DNA of 64,000 nt from Halobacteriota archaeon (GCA_049287525.1 JBAQFZ010000008.1:23541-87540), one strand, 5' to 3'; shown: positions 13,704 through 26,096, counted from the first letter of the stretch. Numbers and translations are program-made. The notes: generated by a model not told the origin, from the letters alone.

Positions 13704-15752
13704 ATGAAGGGAAGAGCGATATTTATTGCAGCGATTTTAGTGGTATCTATTGTTGCTTTGACGGGTGTTGTGAGCAGCGTAGCAGCGACGGAAAAGATAG
13801 ATTTGTTCCTGTTAATAGATGGATCTGGTAGTGTCGCGGCGGAGGACTATATAAATCAAACGAGCGGCTATGCCGCGGCTATTGATAATGAATCGATTGT
13901 TCCACAGGACGGCTCTGTCTCGATTTGCGTGATTATGTTCGGCTTTAAGCCGGGTGGTGTGTATAATCCTCAACTTATGCCTTATAATGTATATAATTAC
14001 GCTAAGGTGATTGTTCCTTACACCACAATCACGAACGCAGCGGTGGCAAAAAGTGTTTCCGAAACGATAAGTAATACGAAGCAGCCGGGGGATGGGACAC
14101 CAATAGAAGCGGCATTCCATGTAGCGATTGAGGAGTTAAAGAAAGCAGTCAAAGAGGGTAAAATTGAACTGAATAAATCTACACAAAAGATAGATATATC
14201 CTCAGATGGACGCCCAAACATGATGCACTTACGGGACTTCTATGGCAAATTTAGAGATGAAAAAGACAAAGAAGCGGTATACAAAGCGTTTGATGCGAGA
14301 ACCGAAGCAATAGCGGCAGGATTTGACGAAATCAATGCGCTTGGTGTGGACCTCAAAGACACAACACGGTCTTATCCGTATAACCGTGAATTCCTGGAAG
14401 ATATGGTTTTGCCACAGCCTTGTGACACAGAGCCGCCAGGCTTTTTCATGGAGACGAGCAGGGCGGATTTTCCGAAGACATTAAAAGAGAAGATAAAAAT
14501 AGAATTACACCCATTTATCAGCGTCAATAAGAGTGTCAGTAAAATATTATGCAATCCCGGTGATGTACTGACCTATACGATAAATTATAGCAACACGAAT
14601 AACGTAAACCTGACAGAAGTCGTTTTAACCGACCCGATTCCTGCTACTACTACTACTTTAGTCTCAGGAAGCATATCAAATGGGGGGACGGTATCGTTGG
14701 ATGGCGTGATTACCTGGAACATAGGCGAGTTGCACGTAGGAAAAGCGGGCACGCAGTCGTTCCAGGTAAGGGTTCACGACCATCTCACAAACGGGACGAT
14801 AATCACGAATACCGCCACGATAGCGAGCAATGAAACAGGACCGGTCAGCGACTCGGTGAACACGACTGTTATATCTCATCCACATATCAGCATCACTAAA
14901 AGCGTCGGTGAAATATTATGCAATCCCGGTGACGTGCTGCACTATACGATAAATTATAGCAACACGAATAACGTAAACCTGACAGAAGTCGTTTTAACCG
15001 ACCCGATTCCTGCTACTACTACTTTAGTCTCAGGAAGCATATCAAATGGGGGGACGGTATCGTCGGATGGCGTGATTACCTGGAACATAGGCGAATTGCA
15101 CGTAGGAGAATCGGGCATGCAGTCGTTCCGGGCAAGGGTTCACGACTCCCTCGCAAACGGGACGATAATCACGAATACCGCCACGATAGCGAGCAATGAA
15201 ACAGGACCGGTCAGCGCCTCGGTGACCACGACTGTTATAGTGCCGAAAATTTTTGAACTATCAGCCTATAAGGCGGTTGATAAGATGTTTGCATCACCAA
15301 ACGAGACGCTCTGCTACCAGATACAATACAAAAATACCGGAACGGAGACGCTCACGCACACTGAGGTAAAAGATACGATACCAGAGAACACCACTTACAT
15401 AGCGGGAAGCATGGGTCTAAACGGTGAAGGTCTAACCGATGGAGCCGGTGATGACGCAGGAAGCTATTACGCAGGGAACAAGACGTTGATATGGGATATA
15501 GGTACATTGGAACCCGGTGAAGGCGGGGATGCGACCTTTAAAGTCACAATAAACGCATTTGTACCCGGAGGAACAATCATACGCAACACCGCTATCCTGA
15601 CAACTAATGAGACATTACCTATTAATCGGACGGTAATAACAAAGGTCAGACCGCCGATACTACTACCAGTGCTGACGTCAGTGGGTATCGCGGTCTTGAT
15701 CGGGCTGCTGAGTCTGGTTGCAATACGCGGTATGAGTGGAAGGCGAAGATAA
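13704..15752 (+). CDS. secreted vWA-domain + DUF11-repeat surface protein with C-terminal TM anchor
   Basis: Signal peptide; vWA MIDAS motif DLFLLIDGSGSV; two near-identical ~122-aa DUF11-type repeats (CNPGDVL.YTINYSNTNNVNLTEVVLTDPIPATTT); C-terminal PPILLP + TM + RRR. Confidence 0.7.
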   Translation: MKGRAIFIAAILVVSIVALTGVVSSVAATEKIDLFLLIDGSGSVAAEDYINQTSGYAAAIDNESIVPQDGSVSICVIMFGFKPGGVYNPQLMPYNVYNYAKVIVPYTTITNAAVAKSVSETISNTKQPGDGTPIEAAFHVAIEELKKAVKEGKIELNKSTQKIDISSDGRPNMMHLRDFYGKFRDEKDKEAVYKAFDARTEAIAAGFDEINALGVDLKDTTRSYPYNREFLEDMVLPQPCDTEPPGFFMETSRADFPKTLKEKIKIELHPFISVNKSVSKILCNPGDVLTYTINYSNTNNVNLTEVVLTDPIPATTTTLVSGSISNGGTVSLDGVITWNIGELHVGKAGTQSFQVRVHDHLTNGTIITNTATIASNETGPVSDSVNTTVISHPHISITKSVGEILCNPGDVLHYTINYSNTNNVNLTEVVLTDPIPATTTLVSGSISNGGTVSSDGVITWNIGELHVGESGMQSFRARVHDSLANGTIITNTATIASNETGPVSASVTTTVIVPKIFELSAYKAVDKMFASPNETLCYQIQYKNTGTETLTHTEVKDTIPENTTYIAGSMGLNGEGLTDGAGDDAGSYYAGNKTLIWDIGTLEPGEGGDATFKVTINAFVPGGTIIRNTAILTTNETLPINRTVITKVRPPILLPVLTSVGIAVLIGLLSLVAIRGMSGRRR

Positions 15753-15797
15753 ATCGTCTTCCCTTTTTGCTTTTTCTTTTAATTTTTTATAGAATTT

Positions 15798-16418
15798 ATG
15801 AGCGTGCAAGCAAAGGGGAAAGTGCGAAACGCACAGCGCAAGAAGAGGGTAGCGCAAAACACTGAGGGTAACGGTAAAAGCCATGCTAATTTATTAACCG
15901 CGGTATTGGAAAAAGCAAAAGAGAACGAGGAAGCGATAAAATACGTGGCGCGTTTCTTAGCTCTTTGTTTCGCGTTCTACATTGTCTATTATATCATAAT
16001 AGTTAGCGACACTATGGTGATGGCTAATATGAGGCACGTTACCACCACAATTTTGGGTGCTATCTTCTCTTTAGCCGGGCTGAAAGTAGTAGAGAGGGCT
16101 GATGTGTTATCCATCAATGGCTTCTCAATGGAGATAATAGATGAATGCACCGCAGTTTTCTCCGCTATCGTTTATTGCTCCTGCGTATTAGCATATCCCG
16201 CAACGCTGAAGCAGAAAAGTCTTGGTATCCTCTTCGGCGTGCCAAGCCTGTATGCGATAAATATCCTTCGCATTTTCCTATTGGCTCTTGTTGGCATGCG
16301 CAATCCCGATATGTTTAAATTTATGCATGTGTATCTCTGGCAGGCGTCTTTTATCATATTCGTGGTCGTGCTCTTTCTGATATGGCTAAAGATGGGGGTG
16401 ACAGATGGCGAAGGATAA
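15798..16418 (+). CDS. exosortase/archaeosortase-family membrane protein (short form)
   Basis: 206 aa with about 5-6 TM helices. IDECTAVFS resembles the exosortase active-site Cys motif, and AINILRIF matches the ANxxR(V/I) motif of the EpsH/archaeosortase family. Lys-rich N-terminus. Confidence 0.45.
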   Translation: MSVQAKGKVRNAQRKKRVAQNTEGNGKSHANLLTAVLEKAKENEEAIKYVARFLALCFAFYIVYYIIIVSDTMVMANMRHVTTTILGAIFSLAGLKVVERADVLSINGFSMEIIDECTAVFSAIVYCSCVLAYPATLKQKSLGILFGVPSLYAINILRIFLLALVGMRNPDMFKFMHVYLWQASFIIFVVVLFLIWLKMGVTDGEG

Positions 16419-16972: not shown

Positions 16973-17194
16973 TTATTTCTTCTTTATTGCATCTAATAAC
17001 CCATGAGCATAGTTTATACATCCAAAGGCAGTGAAGTAATCACCCTTATCAAGATAATACTTCGTATCCTCAAAGTATCCCTTAGCAAGCTCTACCACTT
17101 TCCCTGTCCTGTCATCGAGCGATAAAGAGCTCAGTTCTGTTATGCTCTTAACAAAAAGAGCGAGGTCCTTTTTTATCCTTTCCGCTTCTCTCAT
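16973..17194 (-). CDS. small conserved hypothetical protein
   Basis: 73 aa ORF in a tight convergent arrangement; no recognisable motif. Confidence 0.35.
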   Translation of the reverse strand: MREAERIKKDLALFVKSITELSSLSLDDRTGKVVELAKGYFEDTKYYLDKGDYFTAFGCINYAHGLLDAIKKK

Positions 17195-17232
17195 TTCTTT
17201 CGTAGCATGAATAAACTTATAATAGAACTAAG

Positions 17233-18195
17233 TTGATTATTACGACATTAGACAGAGAGGGGGTAAAAATGGTAGAACGACTAACAGAATCGGGGAAGAT
17301 CTGGTATAATGGCAAGTTTGTGGATTGGAAAGACGCCACGGTGCACGTGCTCTCGCATGGTTTGCATTACGGGTCCGGTGTGTTCGAGGGGATAAGGTGC
17401 TATGCCACGGACAAGGGTTCGTTTATCTTCAGGCTAAAGGAACATGTGGACCGGATGTACCGGTCAGCGGAGTTGTACCAGTTGGAGATCCCGTATTCGA
17501 AGGCGGAGCTGACAGAAGCGATAAAAGGAACGATTCGTATAAACGAACTTGATGCGTGCTACATAAGGCCTATCGCGTTCTATGGTCTCCATCACTTAGG
17601 CGTGAATCCAGCCGGCTGCCCCGTGGATTGTGCAATTGCCGTATGGCGTTGGGGCGCTTATCTTGGTGCGGATGCGTTAGAGACCGGTATAAGATGTACA
17701 ATCTCTTCATGGCGTAGAATAGACCCCCATACATTGCCTGTCACGTCAAAGGCAACGGGGCACTATCTGAATTCGATGTTAGCAGTGCGCGATGCGAAGG
17801 AACGCGGATTTGATGAGGCGATAATGCTTGACAATAACGGATATGTGGCAGAAGGTCCTGGCGAGAATATATTCACAGTTATAAATTCAACGCTATACAC
17901 GCCCGGAGTAGAATCTTCTATTCTGCCTGGTATTACCCGGGCGTCTGTAATCGAGCTTGCACGTGATATGGGGTATGAGGTGGTAGAGAAGTCCATAACG
18001 AAGGAGGAGTTATTGTCTGCCGCGGAAGTTTTTTTCACGGGCACTGCGGCAGAGGTGTCGCCGATACGCGCGATAGACAATGTAACAATAGGAGCAGGTA
18101 AGCGAGGAGAAGTGACTGGCGCGATACAAAAGAAGTTCTTTGACGTGGTGAATGCGAAAGAGGCACGATATATGAACTGGCTGGTACGGGTGTAA
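17233..18195 (+). CDS. ilvE: branched-chain amino acid aminotransferase
   Basis: 320 aa, class IV aminotransferase fold; EGIRCY and catalytic lysine region. Confidence 0.85.
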   Translation: MIITTLDREGVKMVERLTESGKIWYNGKFVDWKDATVHVLSHGLHYGSGVFEGIRCYATDKGSFIFRLKEHVDRMYRSAELYQLEIPYSKAELTEAIKGTIRINELDACYIRPIAFYGLHHLGVNPAGCPVDCAIAVWRWGAYLGADALETGIRCTISSWRRIDPHTLPVTSKATGHYLNSMLAVRDAKERGFDEAIMLDNNGYVAEGPGENIFTVINSTLYTPGVESSILPGITRASVIELARDMGYEVVEKSITKEELLSAAEVFFTGTAAEVSPIRAIDNVTIGAGKRGEVTGAIQKKFFDVVNAKEARYMNWLVRV

Positions 18196-18220
18196 AAGTC
18201 GTATTCGAATTCTTTTCCCG

Positions 18221-18354
18221 TATTTGTATAGCTACATAAAAAACCACAAGATTAACACAAGAAATTATAATTATTTTGGAATAAAGTAGCCAATAGTGTA
18301 CTGAAACTATGTTAATTTTATTCTTTTTCTCGTGAAAATCTGTGTTAATCTGTG
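18221..18354. mobile_element. MITE-like repeat copy 1 (short variant lacking the hairpin module)
   Basis: Shares gtatttgtatagctacataaaaaaccac[a/g]agat.cacaagattaacacaagaaatt... and the right inverted end tgtgttaatctgtg with the copies at 26.1, 29.6 and 43.6 kb. Confidence 0.6.
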
Positions 18355-18416
18355 TCTGTCTATAATTTATTTTCTCTTCTGTTTATTCAAAGACAATTAG
18401 CCAGCCGGATAAAACT

Positions 18417-19382
18417 TCAAACGATAACCTCCTCCCCCAATCTCGTGTCATCCAGCTCCTTAGTCCACCTGTTGAAATCCAGCCAGAGTATTACAGTAAT
18501 ACAGGTGAGGATAAGAAGATAAATGGCAACGACTATAAGCGTATCCAGCATTAACCGTTGATAAACTCTGTTTATCTCAGGTTTAAGCCCTTTTATATCA
18601 CCGAGCGCATTATCACGGTGTTTCTCATATAATTTCTCCGCGTGCTCATACGAATCCCGTGCTTTTATTATCTCCATAAATGCAGCGCCAAATAAGCTTG
18701 AAGAGGCGCTGCGGGCATTGTCAAGATACGACCTCGATGCCATTACATATTCTGATGCCCGTTCCATATCCCGTTTATACATCCGTTCATCACGTAGCGC
18801 CTCGAACTTCATCCGGCTTGCGTCACTGGGCATGCCACCCTCTCCGTATGAAGCCGAACTTATATACTCGTATTCTATCTTCACCTTTGTCACGTTCGTA
18901 TTGGTAGCCATGTCCTTGAAGTATCTTCCTTCGTCCCGGTAAAATCGCTTAAGTGCACGCTCGGCAAGCATTGGTATTCCATTCCTTTCCGCGGTGGCGT
19001 AGCTATTGAGTTTGATTATGGATGTGTTAATCGAATCAGCCATTTTTAGTGCTTCTTTATGGTCCGCGGGACTTTGACTCTCGCTTAACGGTGCCATCTT
19101 TTCAAACTTATCAACAATTGTGAGGAAGATATTTACCCACTCTTTTGTCGTATAGGTAACCTCTGAACCTTCCATACTCTGAATCACCGCCTGTACCTCT
19201 GCCTTTGCAAGTGATAACTCGTCATAGTCGTCAAATACCCCCGACTTGTTCAGCGATATTATATTCTGAAGCAGGTCCCTCTTCAGCGCGTCTGAGCCTG
19301 CCGCAGGTGTGGCGAAAGCCAGGAGGTTGATTATAATTATGGTTATAATCAGGACTAAGGCAATCAAACTTCGCGAGTTCAT
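18417..19382 (-). CDS. secreted/membrane-anchored helical protein (signal peptide + C-terminal TM)
   Basis: 321 aa; N-terminal hydrophobic signal and C-terminal TM segment LIVVAIYLLILTCITVILWL. Divergently transcribed from the FtsZ-like operon. Confidence 0.5.
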   Translation of the reverse strand: MNSRSLIALVLIITIIIINLLAFATPAAGSDALKRDLLQNIISLNKSGVFDDYDELSLAKAEVQAVIQSMEGSEVTYTTKEWVNIFLTIVDKFEKMAPLSESQSPADHKEALKMADSINTSIIKLNSYATAERNGIPMLAERALKRFYRDEGRYFKDMATNTNVTKVKIEYEYISSASYGEGGMPSDASRMKFEALRDERMYKRDMERASEYVMASRSYLDNARSASSSLFGAAFMEIIKARDSYEHAEKLYEKHRDNALGDIKGLKPEINRVYQRLMLDTLIVVAIYLLILTCITVILWLDFNRWTKELDDTRLGEEVIV

Positions 19383-19541: not shown

Positions 19542-20492
19542 ATGACTATGCGATACCTGCTTGTTGGACTGGGGAATGCCGGAATTGCAATTCTTAACGC
19601 TCTACTGGAGTACAAAGAGATAAAGAGTGCAAAGCCAAAGCCGGTTATTATCCTGCTACGGTCCGAGAGCGAGGGAGTGGATAAGATAGCAACTGCGTTA
19701 GAGCGAGCAAAAGGCGGGGGCGTTGATTTCGCGCTTCTCTTCACGGGATTTAGCAATAGTAATAATAGTAATATATCAGCAGCGGAAATATTGAATGATC
19801 AAAAGATAAAGACGCTTTTTATTGGCATTCTGCCTGCGAATAGAAGAGAAGAGCAGGAGGAGATAGTAAGTGTATATTCGTCACTGGAGAAGCTAAAAGC
19901 GCATGTGAAATCATTTATAATCGTGGATAACCAGCGTATAGCGCACCATCCAAACTACAAGGAGTTTTATCCACGGTATAACAGGTATATCGCCTCGTGC
20001 CTCGTGGACATCCTCGCAGGGATTCGTGTAAAGGACAGGGCAAACGTGTCCGGGGCGCAATCTGCCCTCCTTCCCATAGAAGAAGTGGTAAAGGCACTGT
20101 CTTTCAATGCTGAGCCGGGCTATGTGGCGGTATCGCGCAGTTCAGAACTTACAAAGGGCTTGATGGGTTATATCGTCCCGTTTACAAGGCACAAACCGCT
20201 TGACCTCAGAACGCTGCTACGGGTTTCGCTGGAGAAGTTCAGCGTTTCTGATGCACCGATAGTCTGTGATAAGAGCGTTTGTTTCCTGCGTGTGCCGGAT
20301 TATTATGTCAGGAGTGGGGGTGTGGATAAGAAATTAATAGAGGAATTCTTGCTCACGTATTCAAAAGAGAGCCATCTCGCGGTATCCGTTACGGGGCGAA
20401 ACACGGTGGCGATCACTAATTTGTTCGTATATAAATTTGAGCAACTGGGTAGATTACGAGATATAAGGGGAGTTGCGCATGAGGCGATATAG
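19542..20492 (+). CDS. divergent FtsZ/tubulin-like protein with degenerate GTP-binding T4 loop
   Basis: YLLVGLGNAGIAILNALLEY aligns to the FtsZ T1 region IKVIGVGGGGNNAV. DFALLFTGFSNSNNSNISAAEIL aligns to the T4 region (GGGTGTG replaced). KTLFIGILPANRREE is cf. VTKPFxFEG. SFIIVDNQRIA is cf. FtsZ TIPNDKLL. Confidence 0.5.
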   Translation: MTMRYLLVGLGNAGIAILNALLEYKEIKSAKPKPVIILLRSESEGVDKIATALERAKGGGVDFALLFTGFSNSNNSNISAAEILNDQKIKTLFIGILPANRREEQEEIVSVYSSLEKLKAHVKSFIIVDNQRIAHHPNYKEFYPRYNRYIASCLVDILAGIRVKDRANVSGAQSALLPIEEVVKALSFNAEPGYVAVSRSSELTKGLMGYIVPFTRHKPLDLRTLLRVSLEKFSVSDAPIVCDKSVCFLRVPDYYVRSGGVDKKLIEEFLLTYSKESHLAVSVTGRNTVAITNLFVYKFEQLGRLRDIRGVAHEAI

Positions 20493-21810
20493 TGTAGTAC
20501 TTGCTCCGCTGGTGCTTTTAGGTTTGATTGCACTTGGTATCTTCATCTTCTTCAAGGGCGGGTCGGACCTTGCATTAATAACTATTATCTTTATCTTTAT
20601 CCCTGCAATGATAGGAGCGGCATTTATGGTTCGATACCTCGTTACGGTACGGAAAGGAAGTCTAAGGGAGAAGGTGATGGTGCGGGACGTGGAGGGTGTA
20701 GCGAACCGGTATGTAGAACAGATGCGGATTCTACACGATTTCGAGGATAAATACGGTATAAGCACGAGCGAATTCCGGCGCGAGCTGGAGAAGGTAAAAG
20801 AAGGTTTAGCCGAACTGGGCTGTGAGGTAAATGGAAGGGTAAGGATGGACCGTGTGAAGCAAAGGAGCGTGGTCTTTGCCGATGTTGAATGGGTGACTAA
20901 GATGTTCGATGGTATAAAAGAGCGGCATGAAGTCGTACTTTATTCCCGGATGATAGAAAGAAGCAGGGCTTATCTTGATGGGCTAAGAGCACTTGAAGAC
21001 GCAGGCTATGATGGTATCCGGGGCAACATAGAGCAGATAGAATCAAAGATAGTGGAGGACGAGAACCTGAAGAAGGATTCACTTGAACTCTCCATCTTCA
21101 TGAATGAGCTGGATTCACGCATAGAAGAAGCGCTGAGAACCTGTTTGCATGATGCACACGGTTTAGAGGCGGAAGGTCGGGAGACGGCAAATGCGGACAC
21201 CGCCCGAGTCAGGACTGATATGAAGCTGGTCGAACATAGCATAGAGCGAGGAAACTACGAGAGCGCATCAAAAGTATTGAATAGCGTGATTGGGAGATTG
21301 AGCCGGATGCTGGCGGATGTGTTTGAACAATATAAGACAGACACGCTTGCGCTGACTGCCGTAGTTGTTGACATGCTGGGAAAGGAAGAAGAAGAGGTGG
21401 AGGTGGCAGTGGTGGATAGGGAGAAGGATAAGAATATGAATAAGAATAAGAAAGAGATAGAAGCGCTGCGGGAACACATCGAGAAGTGCATGACGCCTTC
21501 AGAGATGCGAAAGCTGCGGGCGTATGGAGATGCGCTCATATTAAAAGCAATAACCGCTTTAGAGGCGACTTATAATAAGATATTCACGATTGAAGAGCAA
21601 ATACTGCGGGAGAACCCGGCAACGGAATTGTATCCCGTGGAATACTGGACCAGGGATAAGATAGGCGAGATAGAGGAACTCAGGTCAATGCCAAAATCGG
21701 AAGTCAGTGATTTTGTTCGCAGATACCGTCTCTTAGCATCCGATGCTATTTCGCGGTTGGTGTATGATTCCGAGAGCTTAAGAAGGCTATCTCGCAAGCA
21801 GCAGGCATAA
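20479..21810 (+). CDS. membrane-anchored coiled-coil protein (2 N-terminal TM helices + long helical cytoplasmic domain)
   Basis: An ATG at 20479 has a GGGGAG 7 nt upstream (the track uses TTG at 20473). It overlaps the stop of the upstream gene. The sequence is E/R/K-rich with heptad periodicity. Confidence 0.55.
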   Translation: MRRYSVVLAPLVLLGLIALGIFIFFKGGSDLALITIIFIFIPAMIGAAFMVRYLVTVRKGSLREKVMVRDVEGVANRYVEQMRILHDFEDKYGISTSEFRRELEKVKEGLAELGCEVNGRVRMDRVKQRSVVFADVEWVTKMFDGIKERHEVVLYSRMIERSRAYLDGLRALEDAGYDGIRGNIEQIESKIVEDENLKKDSLELSIFMNELDSRIEEALRTCLHDAHGLEAEGRETANADTARVRTDMKLVEHSIERGNYESASKVLNSVIGRLSRMLADVFEQYKTDTLALTAVVVDMLGKEEEEVEVAVVDREKDKNMNKNKKEIEALREHIEKCMTPSEMRKLRAYGDALILKAITALEATYNKIFTIEEQILRENPATELYPVEYWTRDKIGEIEELRSMPKSEVSDFVRRYRLLASDAISRLVYDSESLRRLSRKQQA

Positions 21811-21874: not shown

Positions 21875-22315
21875 TTGAGTATGGAACCGTTGAGTATAGG
21901 AATACTTATTGTTGCCCTGTTGATCGCCGTGGAAGTGGTATTGATGCTGGTAAAATTAAAGGTGGACAAGATGCTGCTTCTTATGCCCGCCACCGGTGTG
22001 ATATGCGCCACTATCGCGTTTGTATTGAATGAATACCGTGATAAAATACCGTTAGCTGTGTCTGCCGCTCTTGTTGTGATATACGTTATGCTTGCCGTGG
22101 GCGTAGTATTGGGACTACTTGGAATTTTGGTATGGCTAAAAGGGGAGCAGGAAGCGAAGAAGATAATCAGCACGGCAAAAGGAATAGATAGCGCAGTTGC
22201 CCGAATTGACAGCGATATGAAGGGAAGCGAGCTGGAATTAGAGCATTTCGACGACGAGATGAGCGCGATAAAGACGAAGATGGCGGATTACGAGACGAAA
22301 GATAAGGAGGTCTGA
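21875..22315 (+). CDS. small membrane protein (3 TM) with C-terminal coiled-coil
   Basis: 146 aa; hydrophobic segments followed by KGSELELEHFDDEMSAIKTKMADYE. Confidence 0.5.
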   Translation: MSMEPLSIGILIVALLIAVEVVLMLVKLKVDKMLLLMPATGVICATIAFVLNEYRDKIPLAVSAALVVIYVMLAVGVVLGLLGILVWLKGEQEAKKIISTAKGIDSAVARIDSDMKGSELELEHFDDEMSAIKTKMADYETKDKEV

Positions 22316-22326
22316 TCGCGAGAGAG

Positions 22327-25017
22327 ATGGAGAAGGGTGAGGATACGGTAAACCGGATAGTAATAGGAATCGGTGGGCAGGGAGGCAGTATTGTAAACAA
22401 CCTGTTAAGGATGCTCAAGACAAAGACCGGGAAGGTGCCGAAGAATGAGGAGTTTTTGATTATTGATACCGATCAGGCATCAGCAAATGCGTGCACCGAA
22501 GTAGAAGAGCGAAGGAAGATAATACTGAGCAGACCCGATACGATATTGATGAAGAACGCGAACAGATGGCTGCCGGACCCATATCTTGCGGCTGCCGGCG
22601 CGGGATGCGGACAGCACCGGATATATGGCAGGGCGATGTATAACGTGCATCGCGAGCGGATATTCAGTGCGATAGGAACAGCCGCATCGGAATTGCGTAA
22701 CCGGACTGGTGGTAAGGACTTCTTCATTCTGATGGTCTGCGCATTGGGCGGGGGGACCGGTTCGAGTATGCTGCTCGACGTGGCGATAGACATCCGGGAT
22801 TGGATTTCAAAACAGTTTGGGTCAGAACCGGTGATGTTCGGAATAGGTATTCTACCTTCGAGCAAGGAGTCCGTGCTCCCGACTGGTAATGCCCTCGGTG
22901 CACTGAAGGAGCTCCATTTCCTCATGTCACATACCGGAGACATCATAATAGACGACAAGAATTATTCTAATCCATTCAAGCTGTTCTTCCTTTTAGGTCG
23001 TGACCTTCAGGGGCAGAACCGAGATGAGGAACTGGAAAGGGCGATACCAAGGTTCCTTCTCGACCTTGGTTTCTTGCCTGGCGGGACGGTAGAGACGAAG
23101 GGCAAGTGGCTTGACCTGAACGACCTGCAGAACCGTGCAAGGGGCTACGAGAACCGGTTTGATTCCCTGGGTTATTATGAATGCGTATTCCCCAGCGATA
23201 AATTGTTCCTTTATTATGACATCGAGGATGAGATACCGGTAGTCAGGCAGCGACTGGTAGAGATAGAGGCGCGAACCGCGGATATACGCGATAAAATAGT
23301 CTTGCAGCGAGGCGAACTGGAACGGTTTGAGGGCAGGATAAGAGATGCTCAGCGAGAGATAGATAGATACGAATCGGGGGGTGGACTGCTGTCGCACGTA
23401 AATGAGGGCGCAATCCGAGATGCGAAGGCGAAACTGGAAAGAGCGAAGAAGAAGTTATCGGATTTGAAAGAAGGCGTGTTCAACCTTGAGATACGGGTAA
23501 GTGATGCGGAAGAGGAGAAGCGGGTGATGGAGCGTAAGTTAGAACGGCTTGAGGCGTTAAAGAACAAGCTGCTCCGGGAGATAACCACGCCGGCGAATAC
23601 GCGAAGTTATCACCAGATAGAGCTTTCGGAGGATGAAGTGCGCGGCTTAAAGAAGAGCAGGGAAGACCTGAAGAATCTATCGTTCTTAGAGATTATGAAT
23701 AAACTGGATAGGGCGGAGGAATATTTCCGATGGACGCATTCGCCGATAAATGAAGGGGACGTGATATTCAATCCAATGGTAAACTACCGACATGCCATCG
23801 AGAATACCATGACCTCGAAATATATAGGCATCCTGAACGATTACGGATTCCTGACGGTAGATGCGCAGGGTAATGTGGTGAACGAGGAGGAGAAGTTCGG
23901 GCATTTCATCGCGGTATTGAGCACGAGGGCGGATAATTTCGATGATGGTCGGCTTGGCGGTGGCGCGTTTAAGAGCATGGTGACGGCACGATTCGCAAAA
24001 GATGCAGACGTGTTAAAATTGGATGCGCCGGCGCGTGCACACAGTTTCGCTATATACACGCTTATGATTGGACTGCAACCCTGGGCGTCAGGTCCAGGAC
24101 TACCGCCGCGACTGCGTGAATTTGAATGGATAGAGAAGGCGTATAAAGAGAGTGAGTTCTCTAAGCTACAAAGACATCATTCATTCTTTTACGGGACTAA
24201 TAAGCCGTTCTCTATGATTACTGATATACCGTACACACCGGGTGCCGAGGATAAGAATAGGGATATGGTGACGAACTACTGGCAGAATTACGAGATAATA
24301 GAGCCCGGGGTCTTATGGGATAATGTGCCTATCATGCTTGCGCAATGCCTGAAGATGTTTGATGATCTCTTAGTCGGGCTGGATATAGCAAGCGATATAA
24401 AGAACGTGCGGGTTCCGGACCCGGAGAGCTACTCAATCGCGAACCTCACGATGCTGGTTCACGAACTGGAAACCGCAGGTAGAAGTATGGAGAAGGTGAA
24501 TCAATGGACTAAAGAAGCAGGACGTGGGTTTACACATCTGAAAGACGAACTTGACGACTTGATAGTCCGGTTAAAGGGTACGGATGCCGGGCGACCTGCG
24601 GAAGACAAAGCGGGTAAGATGCTCCGGATGATTGACGATTCTAAGCGGGACATGGAGATATTGCTGGACCGGATTGATGATATGTCAAACAGCTTCAGTA
24701 ACGAGATAGAAGCATTCGTGGAAGGGGCAAAGGACTTTATCGGTAAGATTCCCTCGGGTGAGACCACATCAAGTGTGATAAGGCAGATAACAAAAGCGGA
24801 GACGGAGATTTCAAGGATACGAGAGAGCAGTATGAAAGCGGCGAAAGGGATAAGAGAGATGAGCAGTCCTCTGGCAACGCTGTTAGCAGCATTAAAAGAG
24901 CTGAAGGGAATAGTGGAACCAGAAGGAGAAGTCGAGGCGGGAGTAATGGAAGTGCATGGCGGTAAGGAGATGGAACTGCCTGATTTATCTACGGACATAA
25001 GGAGGAAAGAAGATTGA
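22327..25017 (+). CDS. FtsZ/tubulin-superfamily GTPase fused to ~600-aa coiled-coil extension
   Basis: T1 is IVIGIGGQGGSIVN. T2-like is LIIDTDQASA (cf. FtsZ NTDAQAL). T3 is AAGAGCGQH. T4 is the canonical ALGGGTGSS. IIIDDKNYSNP is cf. FtsZ IPNDKL. A long E/R/K-rich helical region follows. Confidence 0.7.
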   Translation: MEKGEDTVNRIVIGIGGQGGSIVNNLLRMLKTKTGKVPKNEEFLIIDTDQASANACTEVEERRKIILSRPDTILMKNANRWLPDPYLAAAGAGCGQHRIYGRAMYNVHRERIFSAIGTAASELRNRTGGKDFFILMVCALGGGTGSSMLLDVAIDIRDWISKQFGSEPVMFGIGILPSSKESVLPTGNALGALKELHFLMSHTGDIIIDDKNYSNPFKLFFLLGRDLQGQNRDEELERAIPRFLLDLGFLPGGTVETKGKWLDLNDLQNRARGYENRFDSLGYYECVFPSDKLFLYYDIEDEIPVVRQRLVEIEARTADIRDKIVLQRGELERFEGRIRDAQREIDRYESGGGLLSHVNEGAIRDAKAKLERAKKKLSDLKEGVFNLEIRVSDAEEEKRVMERKLERLEALKNKLLREITTPANTRSYHQIELSEDEVRGLKKSREDLKNLSFLEIMNKLDRAEEYFRWTHSPINEGDVIFNPMVNYRHAIENTMTSKYIGILNDYGFLTVDAQGNVVNEEEKFGHFIAVLSTRADNFDDGRLGGGAFKSMVTARFAKDADVLKLDAPARAHSFAIYTLMIGLQPWASGPGLPPRLREFEWIEKAYKESEFSKLQRHHSFFYGTNKPFSMITDIPYTPGAEDKNRDMVTNYWQNYEIIEPGVLWDNVPIMLAQCLKMFDDLLVGLDIASDIKNVRVPDPESYSIANLTMLVHELETAGRSMEKVNQWTKEAGRGFTHLKDELDDLIVRLKGTDAGRPAEDKAGKMLRMIDDSKRDMEILLDRIDDMSNSFSNEIEAFVEGAKDFIGKIPSGETTSSVIRQITKAETEISRIRESSMKAAKGIREMSSPLATLLAALKELKGIVEPEGEVEAGVMEVHGGKEMELPDLSTDIRRKED

Positions 25018-26096
25018 GGCGTATATTATCTTATAGCTCGCTTGCCGTTCTGGCACCTGTACTTGTACTTGTAGTTCTGTTTTCATGCGTGGGAATGAGT
25101 ATTGCTGCTGCTGCGGTTCAGGACGTGCTGAAGCTGAACGAAGGGCAGTCGTATGTCCGCAATTTAGAGCCGAGCAGGGTAGCGAGAATTAGCTATGACG
25201 CGTTTTTGAATAGCAATCAATTTGAAGGGGATACGCTTGAATTTCATATCTTCGTGGATAAGGTAGAGAAGGCACCCATTTTAGATGATTATGTCTTAAA
25301 ACTGGAGACAAATCTGGAGAATCCCGAATGGAAATTCGGCGATGACCTCTATCACTCTGCCGAGGTGATTGTATGGGAGGGCGAAGAAGCGCACACGCGC
25401 ATGGTTCCCGAGATTATACTATCTGGTGAGGTTCCCGCACCGATAATAACCATAAAAGAGCCGGGGTTCAACTACGATATTGATGGTATAGGGCAGGATA
25501 AGGTATATGTCAAATTAACTGTCGGGACGGTAAAGGAAAAGGAGGGGGCGACATTGAAGACCATCATCCAGAAACTGGAGCCGACAATGACGTTCTTCTC
25601 CACGAATGAGGGGATACAGAGCGCGAAGAGCGAGATGGATGAGAACCTGGAAGTGGCAAAAGGCAAGATTGGGGAGACGGAATTAGGAAAGGATATAGAA
25701 GAGCTCTACAAAAATGGGCATCCGGGTTGGGCATCTAAATTATCAACCGATTATAAGGCGCTATCGGTAGTGGCAGAGCCACCGCCAATTATGCTTTATG
25801 CCCTCGCCGCGATGATACTCGGGTTGATATTAGGTGCGGGATTCGTGTATGTGTATGTCTCGCGAGGCGGCGGCAAAGGTGTGGACGTGAGTGAGATTTC
25901 GTCAGAGCTGGATGATACTTCAGGTAGAATAGCAGAGAAGTCGGGTGCAATCAATGCGATTTCAACGAGGTTTGCGCGCAGCGCAGATGAAGAGCAGAGG
26001 GGCGCGGCGAGGGAGTTGCTAAAGATAAGAGCGAGTTTGAATGAGCTCGCGAATGAACTGAGGGCAATTGCAGATAGGATAAGGGGTTCGAGATAA
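25014..26096 (+). CDS. signal-peptide protein with ~230-aa extracellular domain, one TM and C-terminal cytoplasmic coiled-coil
   Basis: A TTG start overlaps the stop of the upstream gene (tTGA), with GGAGG 8 nt upstream. A TM helix (LYALAAMILGLILGAGFVYVYV) is followed by a helical tail. Confidence 0.55.
   Translation: MRRILSYSSLAVLAPVLVLVVLFSCVGMSIAAAAVQDVLKLNEGQSYVRNLEPSRVARISYDAFLNSNQFEGDTLEFHIFVDKVEKAPILDDYVLKLETNLENPEWKFGDDLYHSAEVIVWEGEEAHTRMVPEIILSGEVPAPIITIKEPGFNYDIDGIGQDKVYVKLTVGTVKEKEGATLKTIIQKLEPTMTFFSTNEGIQSAKSEMDENLEVAKGKIGETELGKDIEELYKNGHPGWASKLSTDYKALSVVAEPPPIMLYALAAMILGLILGAGFVYVYVSRGGGKGVDVSEISSELDDTSGRIAEKSGAINAISTRFARSADEEQRGAARELLKIRASLNELANELRAIADRIRGSR

Follow-up and report, generated by a model that had tools for sequence, protein, structure and literature searches.

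A predicted tubulin-fold protein with a deleted nucleotide pocket is maintained in ANME-1 and Syntrophoarchaeum beside membrane-protein genes and an FtsZl1 GTPase

The tubulin superfamily is defined by polymerisation driven by guanosine triphosphate (GTP). What, then, does a tubulin-fold protein do when its nucleotide pocket is gone? The question is raised by gene A (19542..20492), which encodes a 316-residue tubulin/FtsZ-fold pseudo-GTPase on a 64,000-nucleotide stretch of DNA from a Halobacteriota archaeon (GCA_049287525.1, JBAQFZ010000008.1:23541-87540). This whole stretch is hereafter the window; coordinates are given in its numbering, and genes A to E and the features within them lie on the plus strand. 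Nearly all close homologues of A and of the neighbouring gene D are labelled ANME-1/Methanophagales in databases, and the source is an anaerobic methanotrophic archaeon of group 1 (ANME-1, Methanophagales-type). A reading made from the sequence alone had proposed that A is an FtsZ-like protein without a phosphate-binding loop that regulates or caps filaments of D, in a pairing comparable to alpha/beta-tubulin. We find that A is a clade-wide, selectively maintained member of the tubulin fold whose nucleotide pocket is deleted and which is operon-linked to a highly conserved GTP-binding relative. With a probability of about 50%, its product is a pseudo-GTPase adaptor or cap, a putative non-enzymatic helper of a membrane-bound cytoskeletal machine, and not a co-polymer subunit of the alpha/beta type. 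The reading frame opens with ATG; an alternative start lies at 19548, the third codon, where the frame begins in a 97%-identical relative from an independent assembly.

Evidence for the fold came from profile searches and structure prediction. Pfam PF00091 matched A only in part (residues 81-135, E=5e-5) and did not reach its gathering threshold (24.1 bits against a cut-off of 33), so the caution of the sequence-only reading was reasonable. The Pfam scan gave neither a PF13809 (Tubulin_2) match nor a coiled-coil extension for A. Among Protein Data Bank (PDB) sequences, a profile of the A family matched FtsZ (2r6r, E=1.9e-7) and CetZ2 (4b45, E=4.1e-7). AlphaFold2 modelled A with a mean predicted local distance difference test score (pLDDT) of 84.8 and a predicted template modelling score of 0.87, and a Foldseek search of the PDB with this model recovered TubZ, CetZ, FtsZ and tubulins (E~1e-13; template modelling score, TM, up to 0.71). 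In the model, A has the two-domain tubulin/FtsZ fold, with a Rossmann-like GTPase domain of five strands, core helix H7 and a C-terminal activation domain; residues 165-172, in the T7 region, are of low confidence. The tubulin relationship of A is far beyond chance. The FtsZ-like fold read from the sequence, for which a profile search and structure prediction had been named as checks, is borne out by both (E~1e-7 and Foldseek E~1e-13).

A profile search with the A family over 1.84 billion representative sequences recovered about 40 full-length relatives (345-717 residues), nearly all with GxGQxG, GGFGKNP and GGGTG(S/C)G motifs. A scan for loci, with 12 canonical members as query and one genome per species, returned 38 loci from haloarchaea, Methanoperedens, ANME-2, Archaeoglobaceae, Hydrothermarchaeota, Altiarchaeales, Bathyarchaeia and Nanoarchaeia, plus two metagenome-assembled genomes (MAGs) labelled bacterial. 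A matches the GTP-binding relatives in these 38 loci with phmmer E=3e-42 to 1e-11, at 25-35% identity. These comparisons indicate that A descends from a GTP-binding archaeal family of "non-canonical" tubulin-like proteins.

In FtsZ and tubulin, the T4 loop and the T2/T3 loops are the source of most phosphate contacts. At the T4 position, alignments and conservation place the string FSNSNNSN (residues 70-77, 19749..19772) where canonical relatives have GGGTG(S/C)G, as the sequence-only reading had said. The two remaining frames contain stops, so no glycine loop is hidden there. Comparison of 70 A-type with 23 canonical sequences revealed that G71 to G74, 96-100% conserved in canonical relatives, are lost in the A-type. 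GGGTG[ST]G was found in none of 69 close orthologue clusters (50-97% identity to A), as against all three distant matches and most of about 35 wider family members. The exact string FSNSNNSN occurs only in the window genome and its 97% relative; the ANME-1 consensus at the site is GLG-DS-(N/D)ITP, and the replacement varies among orthologues in both sequence and length. The tract itself is low-complexity DNA rich in AAT and AGT (ttt agc aat agt aat aat agt aat), which suggests slippage-type evolution in a loop freed from constraint. A sequencing or frameshift artefact was considered and rejected on the stops in the other frames, the presence of the same string in the independent 97% relative and the missing loop in all orthologues. 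A canonical T4 loop in homologues elsewhere had been thought to point to such an error; these loops do exist, but only in the distant relatives (25-35% identity) and not in close orthologues, which shows evolutionary loss.

A second loss had been missed by the earlier reading. Between S2 and S4, where canonical relatives hold about 50-70 extra residues (the T2 loop, S3, T3 with GGFGKNP, and H3), the alignments and the model give A only a short helix (residues ~40-58, 19659..19715). This block of T2, S3 and T3 is deleted in A and in all 69 orthologue clusters, so that A is missing the T2/T3 loops that sense the gamma-phosphate; an invariant NS preceding T2 in canonical relatives is also lost in the A-type. 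The Syntrophoarchaeum orthologue (291-300 residues, 38% identical to A) has the same deletion together with a half-decayed loop, GLGGEIGG, and T4 runs in series from GGGTG(S/C)G through GGEIGG in Syntrophoarchaeum and GLG-DS-NITP to FSNSNNSN. To judge from these alignments, the T2/S3/T3 deletion is older than the split between ANME-1 and Syntrophoarchaeum and T4 eroded later, an order that rules out both an artefact and recent pseudogenisation. With the phosphate-binding loops missing lineage-wide, the proposed deficiency in GTP binding is a sound reading of the sequences.

Elsewhere A is strongly conserved, in part together with its GTP-binding relatives. The T1-like loop GLGNAG (residues 9-14, 19566..19583) keeps its glycines: G9, G11 and G14 are 99-100% conserved in the 70 A-type sequences and common to canonical relatives. 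The end of S6, the loop DNQRIAHHPN and core helix H7 with YNRYIASC..D (residues 129-160, 19926..20021) are also shared; D129, N130, Y146, N147, Y149 and D156 are close to 100% conserved in both sets, and an LP motif is kept. A remnant of the T7 loop, LLPIEE, persists (residues 176-181, 20067..20084; the model is of low confidence at 165-172); it no longer has the first Asp of the DxxD motif and retains the second as E181. Both positions are Asp in canonical relatives (96% and 100%). In the A-type, residue 178 varies, and at residue 181, in this loop modelled with low confidence, 60/70 sequences have E or D and 7/70 have R. An Asn in H5 and an Arg in S8, both otherwise invariant, are further A-type losses.

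Other conserved residues are specific to the A-type. R101 is present in all 70 sequences and is followed by R in 66 and K in 4; the pair, not found in canonical relatives, lies in a loop PANRRE (19833..19850) that borders the former nucleotide pocket and whose assignment to the T5 position follows the succession of strands and helices in the model. The most conserved A-type-specific stretch, SRSSELTKGLMGYIVPFTRHKPLD (residues 198-221, 20133..20204), comprises S7 and the S7-H9 loop. It is near-invariant in the 70 A-type sequences, with the consensus SRASELTKGLxGYIxPF..HKPLD from S198 to D221, and differs in canonical relatives. In the model, this loop probably takes the position of the tubulin M-loop, which is a site of lateral contact. 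H135-L-P-N is near-invariant and A-type-specific as well, and the invariant A-type-specific set includes R101, H135 and SELTKG. Judged by this conservation, A is held under purifying selection.

Gene D (22327..25017) encodes an 896-residue FtsZl1/Tubulin_2 GTPase (Pfam PF13809, E=4.5e-23), 100% identical to a protein of an NCBI MAG labelled "Halobacteriota archaeon". Among homologues gathered with full-length D as query, residues of T1, the T3 region and T4 are near-invariant, as is a T7-like WLDLND (D263 and D266, 23107-23124); T1 GIGGQGG (22366-22383) and T4 GGGTGSS (22747-22767) comprise invariant columns. The AlphaFold2 model of D (pLDDT 82) consists of a GTPase domain (residues 9-287), a coiled-coil hairpin of about 130 residues (290-420, 23194-23586), a mixed alpha/beta region (428-583) and a helical C-terminus. 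Foldseek aligned about 600 columns of D, across the hairpin, with CetZ1 and Escherichia coli FtsZ (target-normalised TM 0.70). By this model, D seems to comprise both domains of a complete tubulin fold, the coiled-coil hairpin being inserted after S7, and the same architecture is indicated for FtsZl1 proteins. Since it is predicted to be complete and has its own T7-like DxxD, D would need no A. The idea that the T7 loop of A complements a D without T7 and C-terminal domain, which had come from the 2010 description of FtsZl1, was rejected for the same reason. Across ANME-1, the GTPase domain of D keeps 89-94% identity, and it shares about 80% with its Syntrophoarchaeum counterpart; for A the values are 55-61% within ANME-1 and 39% against Syntrophoarchaeum, and genes B, C, E and U diverge similarly to A. 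Fast A, B, C, E and U around a conserved D are, on these identities, the pattern of a putative polymer-forming core (D) ringed by accessory proteins.

A and D are predicted to be soluble, and the remaining genes of the locus encode predicted membrane proteins. Gene B (20473..21810), whose start overlaps the A stop by 20 nucleotides, encodes 445 residues with two N-terminal transmembrane helices and a large, helical and highly charged domain. Gene C (21875..22315; 146 residues, three predicted transmembrane helices and a C-terminal helix) ends 11 nucleotides upstream of D. Gene E (25014..26096; 360 residues, an N-terminal and a second transmembrane helix and a C-terminal helical tail) overlaps the D stop by 4 nucleotides. 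Divergent from A on the minus strand is gene U (18417..19382; 321 residues, N- and C-terminal transmembrane helices). The A-B overlap, of 4-20 nucleotides, is present in all orthologous loci and is general for A-family genes and B elsewhere. Moreover, B is homologous over its full length to the gene that follows the A-family gene in type I clusters of other archaea, described below (hhalign probability 99.8%, E=2.8e-28, 407 columns including the two N-terminal transmembrane helices). C is conserved in ANME-1 and Syntrophoarchaeum, and its match to a small membrane gene upstream of D in ANME-2-type clusters reaches an hhalign probability of 49% only. In ANME-1, Syntrophoarchaeum and ANME-2 alike, D is followed by an E orthologue.

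The order A-B-C-D-E with U divergent recurs with unrelated flanks on four ANME-1 contigs, one Methanospirareceae contig and in Syntrophoarchaeum. It is broken in JAODGH, JAODGI and JAODGJ, three sister ANME-1 assemblies with consecutive accessions (GCA_0254643xx), across which U-A-B and C-D-E lie on separate contigs. LarA and ribosomal-protein genes come after U-A-B there, and C-D-E stands behind a radical-SAM gene and a DUF58/vWA_2 gene (L049:6015-9155; L051:6497-10659; L052:5614-9776). This split identifies U|A-B and C-D-E as the cohesive units. Over 44 related loci, the A-family gene is linked to U or its paralogue U2 in 34 and to B in 29, and to a D-type gene in a minority; B and divergent U are the partners conserved across the whole A family. 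Thus, the association of A with D that the sequence-only reading had proposed holds in part: the two share an operon in the window and in six more loci of ANME-1 and Syntrophoarchaeum, but D-type linkage is a minority over the 44 A-family loci and is split in one ANME-1 lineage.

Clustering of open reading frames revealed a common core of the related clusters, with U2 and U facing one way and the A-family gene the opposite way, and three architectures built on it. In type I, the A-family gene is followed by B and then by a second canonical tubulin paralogue (GAGNNW at T3, GGGTGNG at T4). Type II has a different second paralogue on the other strand, followed by two small genes, a D-type FtsZl1 gene and E. 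Type III, that of ANME-1 and Syntrophoarchaeum, joins the A-B part of type I to the C-D-E part of type II; no second canonical tubulin paralogue was found within the 64-kb window. In ANME-2, Methanoperedens, a Nanoarchaeia MAG and locus L001, a D-type gene is found at a distance of 3-4 kb from a canonical A-family gene. Examples of cluster extent are L009:4555-21242, L029:6989-13924 and L037:6768-17713 (among loci L007-L044).

We propose the following account of A as an adaptor or cap. The T2/S3/T3 segment was lost in the common ancestor of ANME-1 and Syntrophoarchaeum, and the glycine-rich T4 loop decayed afterwards. The resulting protein would neither bind nor hydrolyse GTP and would form no dynamic polymer. 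It would serve as a non-enzymatic structural subunit, produced in a fixed ratio to B through translational coupling, that bridges a B/U membrane complex and a GTP-dependent polymer, in this lineage D. It might also cap or anchor a filament end through its remnant longitudinal faces, either E181 at the T7 side or the Arg-Arg-lined former nucleotide face, and the conserved S7-H9 loop would offer an additional possible contact. Among the observations that count for this account, U-A-B stays together where the operon splits, and A diverges at the rate of B, C, E and U, with D far more conserved.

Some observations weigh against the adaptor account. The T1 glycines and Y146, N147 and D156 of H7, on the base/ribose side of the pocket in the A-family fold, are still 100% conserved; since they are invariant, A may retain binding of a nucleotide or another ligand. 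In one ANME-1 subclade (the 7/70 above) the acidic position on the T7 side is Arg, which speaks against a universal catalytic or capping role of that face. Finally, neither Pfam, NCBIfam nor PADLOC gave an assignment for U, B, C or E.

Parts of the account differ in strength. Direct contact between A and D is tentative, a putative interaction that we hold to be conceivable and less likely than not. More doubtful is a specific version in which nucleotide-free A, tethered to the membrane via B, binds one end of a D polymer through a tubulin-type longitudinal interface, the Arg-Arg patch replacing the GTP pocket, and so acts as a permanent seed or cap. If true, prokaryotes would have evolved their own counterpart of templated or capped tubulin assembly independently, and A would sit in a trans-membrane multi-tubulin machine widespread in archaea.

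Alternatively, A and D might form an obligate heterodimer or co-polymer like alpha/beta-tubulin or BtubA/B, in which A, without nucleotide exchange or hydrolysis, alternates with D or caps it. Both proteins have a tubulin fold, their genes share an operon in the window and six other Syntropharchaeia loci, an acidic residue occupies the catalytic T7 position of A in 60/70, and D-type genes lie near canonical A-family genes in the four cases given above. We nevertheless consider this model unlikely. The two proteins evolve at very unequal rates (55-61% for A against 89-94% for the N-terminal domain of D within ANME-1), D has a complete fold with its own near-invariant DxxD, and A has no nucleotide pocket, unlike alpha-tubulin and BtubA, both of which bind GTP. 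In addition, most canonical A-family loci have no D-type gene, the A family pairing there with B and a different tubulin paralogue, and the JAODG assemblies carry U-A-B and C-D-E on different contigs. The analogy to alpha/beta-tubulin offered by the sequence-only reading is therefore weakened: with unequal constraint, a D that is self-sufficient in the model and an A family ancestrally tied to B and a different paralogue, it fits poorly.

The persistence of U-A-B after the operon splits can also be accommodated by a model in which A self-assembles with B into a static, nucleotide-independent membrane lattice or ring, D being a separate and merely co-regulated sub-module. The conserved A-B coupling, the highly conserved loop of A at the putative M-loop position and the type I clusters, in which an A-family gene occurs without any D-type gene, are consistent with it. 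However, the A-family protein of type I clusters is a canonical GTPase beside a second canonical tubulin, so that the ancestral role was probably dynamic; both modules are retained in Syntropharchaeia; and self-assembly itself is hypothetical. We regard a lattice of this kind as quite unlikely.

The residues that A shares with its GTP-binding relatives raise a different possibility, that A is a ligand-binding sensor or switch. T1 and the base-side residues might weakly bind a guanine nucleotide, or R101 and R102 might bind a different ligand, either a small molecule or a partner that is phosphorylated. The near-complete conservation of the T1 glycines, the DN motif and Y146/N147/D156, in common with the relatives, and the position of the two arginines beside the former pocket fit such a role. 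In contrast, T4 and the whole T2/T3 segment are gone, the T4 replacement varies in sequence and length, as is unexpected for a binding loop, and the residues kept in H7 and T1 could be purely structural. We find this model improbable. Lastly, that A is a functionless decaying relic, a pseudogene in the making, might be argued from its lost enzymatic motifs, the low-complexity DNA at T4 and its faster evolution than D, but is effectively refuted by the intact frame of full-length orthologues, which form about 97 clusters and come from both ANME-1 and Syntrophoarchaeum (38% identity), by dozens of invariant residues, some of them A-type-specific, by the confident fold prediction and by the conserved translational coupling to B.

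Several features of the related clusters and of the window deserve mention. The clusters hold two or three tubulin-superfamily paralogues, U, U2, B and large proteins with immunoglobulin-like or carboxypeptidase-regulatory-like domains. The second paralogue of type I has T3 motifs GAGNNW or GAGNVY and a T4 motif GGGTGNGS that are strikingly like those of eukaryotic tubulins (L029:12587-13924, L007:15003-16373, L009:14629-15858). Haloarchaeal clusters have a third paralogue of about 530-650 residues with a Cys/His-containing N-terminus, a low-complexity linker and TKGTGCG at T4 (L009:6446-8233, L022:5861-7456); with its partly degenerate T4, it may be another step towards a pseudo-GTPase. Of the MAGs labelled bacterial, one assigned to Dehalococcoidales has two tandem tubulin-like genes (L044:8761-11176) and one labelled "bacterium" has a full cluster (L031:9887-15583), either by transfer from archaea to bacteria or by mis-binning.

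U2, a U paralogue of about 810 residues, follows U in every other examined ANME-1/Syntrophoarchaeum locus except the split locus L049. No U2 homologue was found anywhere in the 64-kb window, where its position (16973-18416) is taken by a DUF357 gene and a branched-chain aminotransferase-like gene (17233-18195). At 13704-16418 the window encodes a secreted protein of vWA-like type (DUF1194), which carries three DUF11 repeats and a hydrophobic anchor at its C-terminus; a membrane protein of the exosortase/archaeosortase family follows, and the two look like a sorting-substrate pair. The vWA-like gene (13704-15752) was rejected as a member of the cluster, as it does not lie beside the tubulin operon in other ANME-1 loci. 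Membership in a defence system was likewise rejected, PADLOC giving only coiled-coil noise, and NCBIfam gave nothing useful for A to E or U. Public records name orthologues of A "Tubulin-like protein CetZ" and those of D "CetZ" or "Chromosome partition protein Smc"; these are automatic names, unsupported by the present evidence.

A is a natural experiment in what the tubulin fold can do without a nucleotide. It also exposes a conserved archaeal cluster of two or three tubulin-like genes with U, U2 and B, in haloarchaea, methanotrophs, Hydrothermarchaeota, Altiarchaeota and others. Definite starting points for experiments are offered by the A-B and A-D pairs. Pure cultures of ANME-1 cannot be obtained, but haloarchaeal and Methanosarcinales relatives belong to genetically tractable groups. 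Our literature searches found no experimental study of FtsZl1 or of these clusters, and no papers on tubulin and FtsZ together in ANME-1.

How does A compare with known systems? Structurally, CetZ is closest (PDB 3zid, 4b45, 4b46), yet A belongs to a separate family. CetZ binds and hydrolyses GTP, has a GGGTGSG loop and forms protofilaments, whereas A is without T2, T3 and T4. A is 14-18% identical to the CetZ structures, has no CetZ-type gene neighbourhood and received no CetZ assignment from Pfam or NCBIfam; with its GTPase motifs missing, it is not a CetZ.

The GTP-binding relatives of A are probably the "Halo.Tub" group, a match made on the published description of taxonomy and context, not on sequences. 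Two studies note "Halo.Tub"/CetZ-like and "non-canonical" groups that bear GTPase motifs and are uncharacterised (Santana-Molina et al., 2023, PMC9871819; Brown and Duggin, 2023, PMC9856176). The relatives match these descriptions in taxonomy (Halobacteriota, Altiarchaeota, a Dehalococcoidales MAG) and in having quasi-tandem paralogues among coiled-coil and membrane genes. The text read from these studies does not mention the pocket-deleted form of ANME-1 and Syntrophoarchaeum or its FtsZl1 operon. Compared with these relatives, the neighbourhood of A shares U and B; D stands in place of the second paralogue, and U2 is missing here.

D has a published counterpart. Makarova and Koonin (2010; PMC2875224), who predicted a role for FtsZl1 in membrane remodelling, listed among its members an ANME-1 fosmid orthologue (gi268325165), whose neighbours were not analysed and whose N-terminus is near-identical to that of D. 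D shares with FtsZl1 the order of FtsZ-like domain, coiled coil and helical C-terminus, as well as membrane-protein neighbours. The published archaeal context (A2, FtsZl1, membrane GTPase, A1; PMC2875224) differs from A-B-C-D-E, and T6-H7 and the C-terminal tubulin domain, undetectable in the 2010 description, are part of the complete fold in our model.

Like alpha/beta-tubulin and BtubA/B, A and D are paired tubulin-fold genes with a putative division of labour, one site of the pair being predicted not to hydrolyse. The acidic T7 residue E254 of alpha-tubulin acts on the GTP of its partner, and A keeps E or D there in 60/70. In alpha/beta-tubulin and BtubA/B, however, both subunits bind GTP and are similarly conserved, while A is pocketless and evolves faster than D, which has its own DxxD. 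In contrast to those pairs, A and D have two genes for membrane proteins between them.

Judged by the literature open to search, three things are new: a pseudo-tubulin of the deletion type that is fixed across Syntropharchaeia, the conserved coupling of its gene to B/U and an FtsZl1 operon, and the cluster architectures I to III. A pseudo-GTPase member of the superfamily is not in itself a new category, because Nmar_1262 provides a precedent. This thaumarchaeal (Nitrosopumilus) FtsZ-like protein has a degenerate loop, AGKAGSA, and does not polymerise (Ng et al., 2013; PMC3684127). Like A, it is a conserved archaeal tubulin-superfamily paralogue deficient in GTP motifs. It differs from A in that its T7 loop is entirely missing and no operon with a GTP-binding tubulin paralogue is reported for it; A, in turn, is set apart by the large T2/T3 deletion and belongs to a different family.

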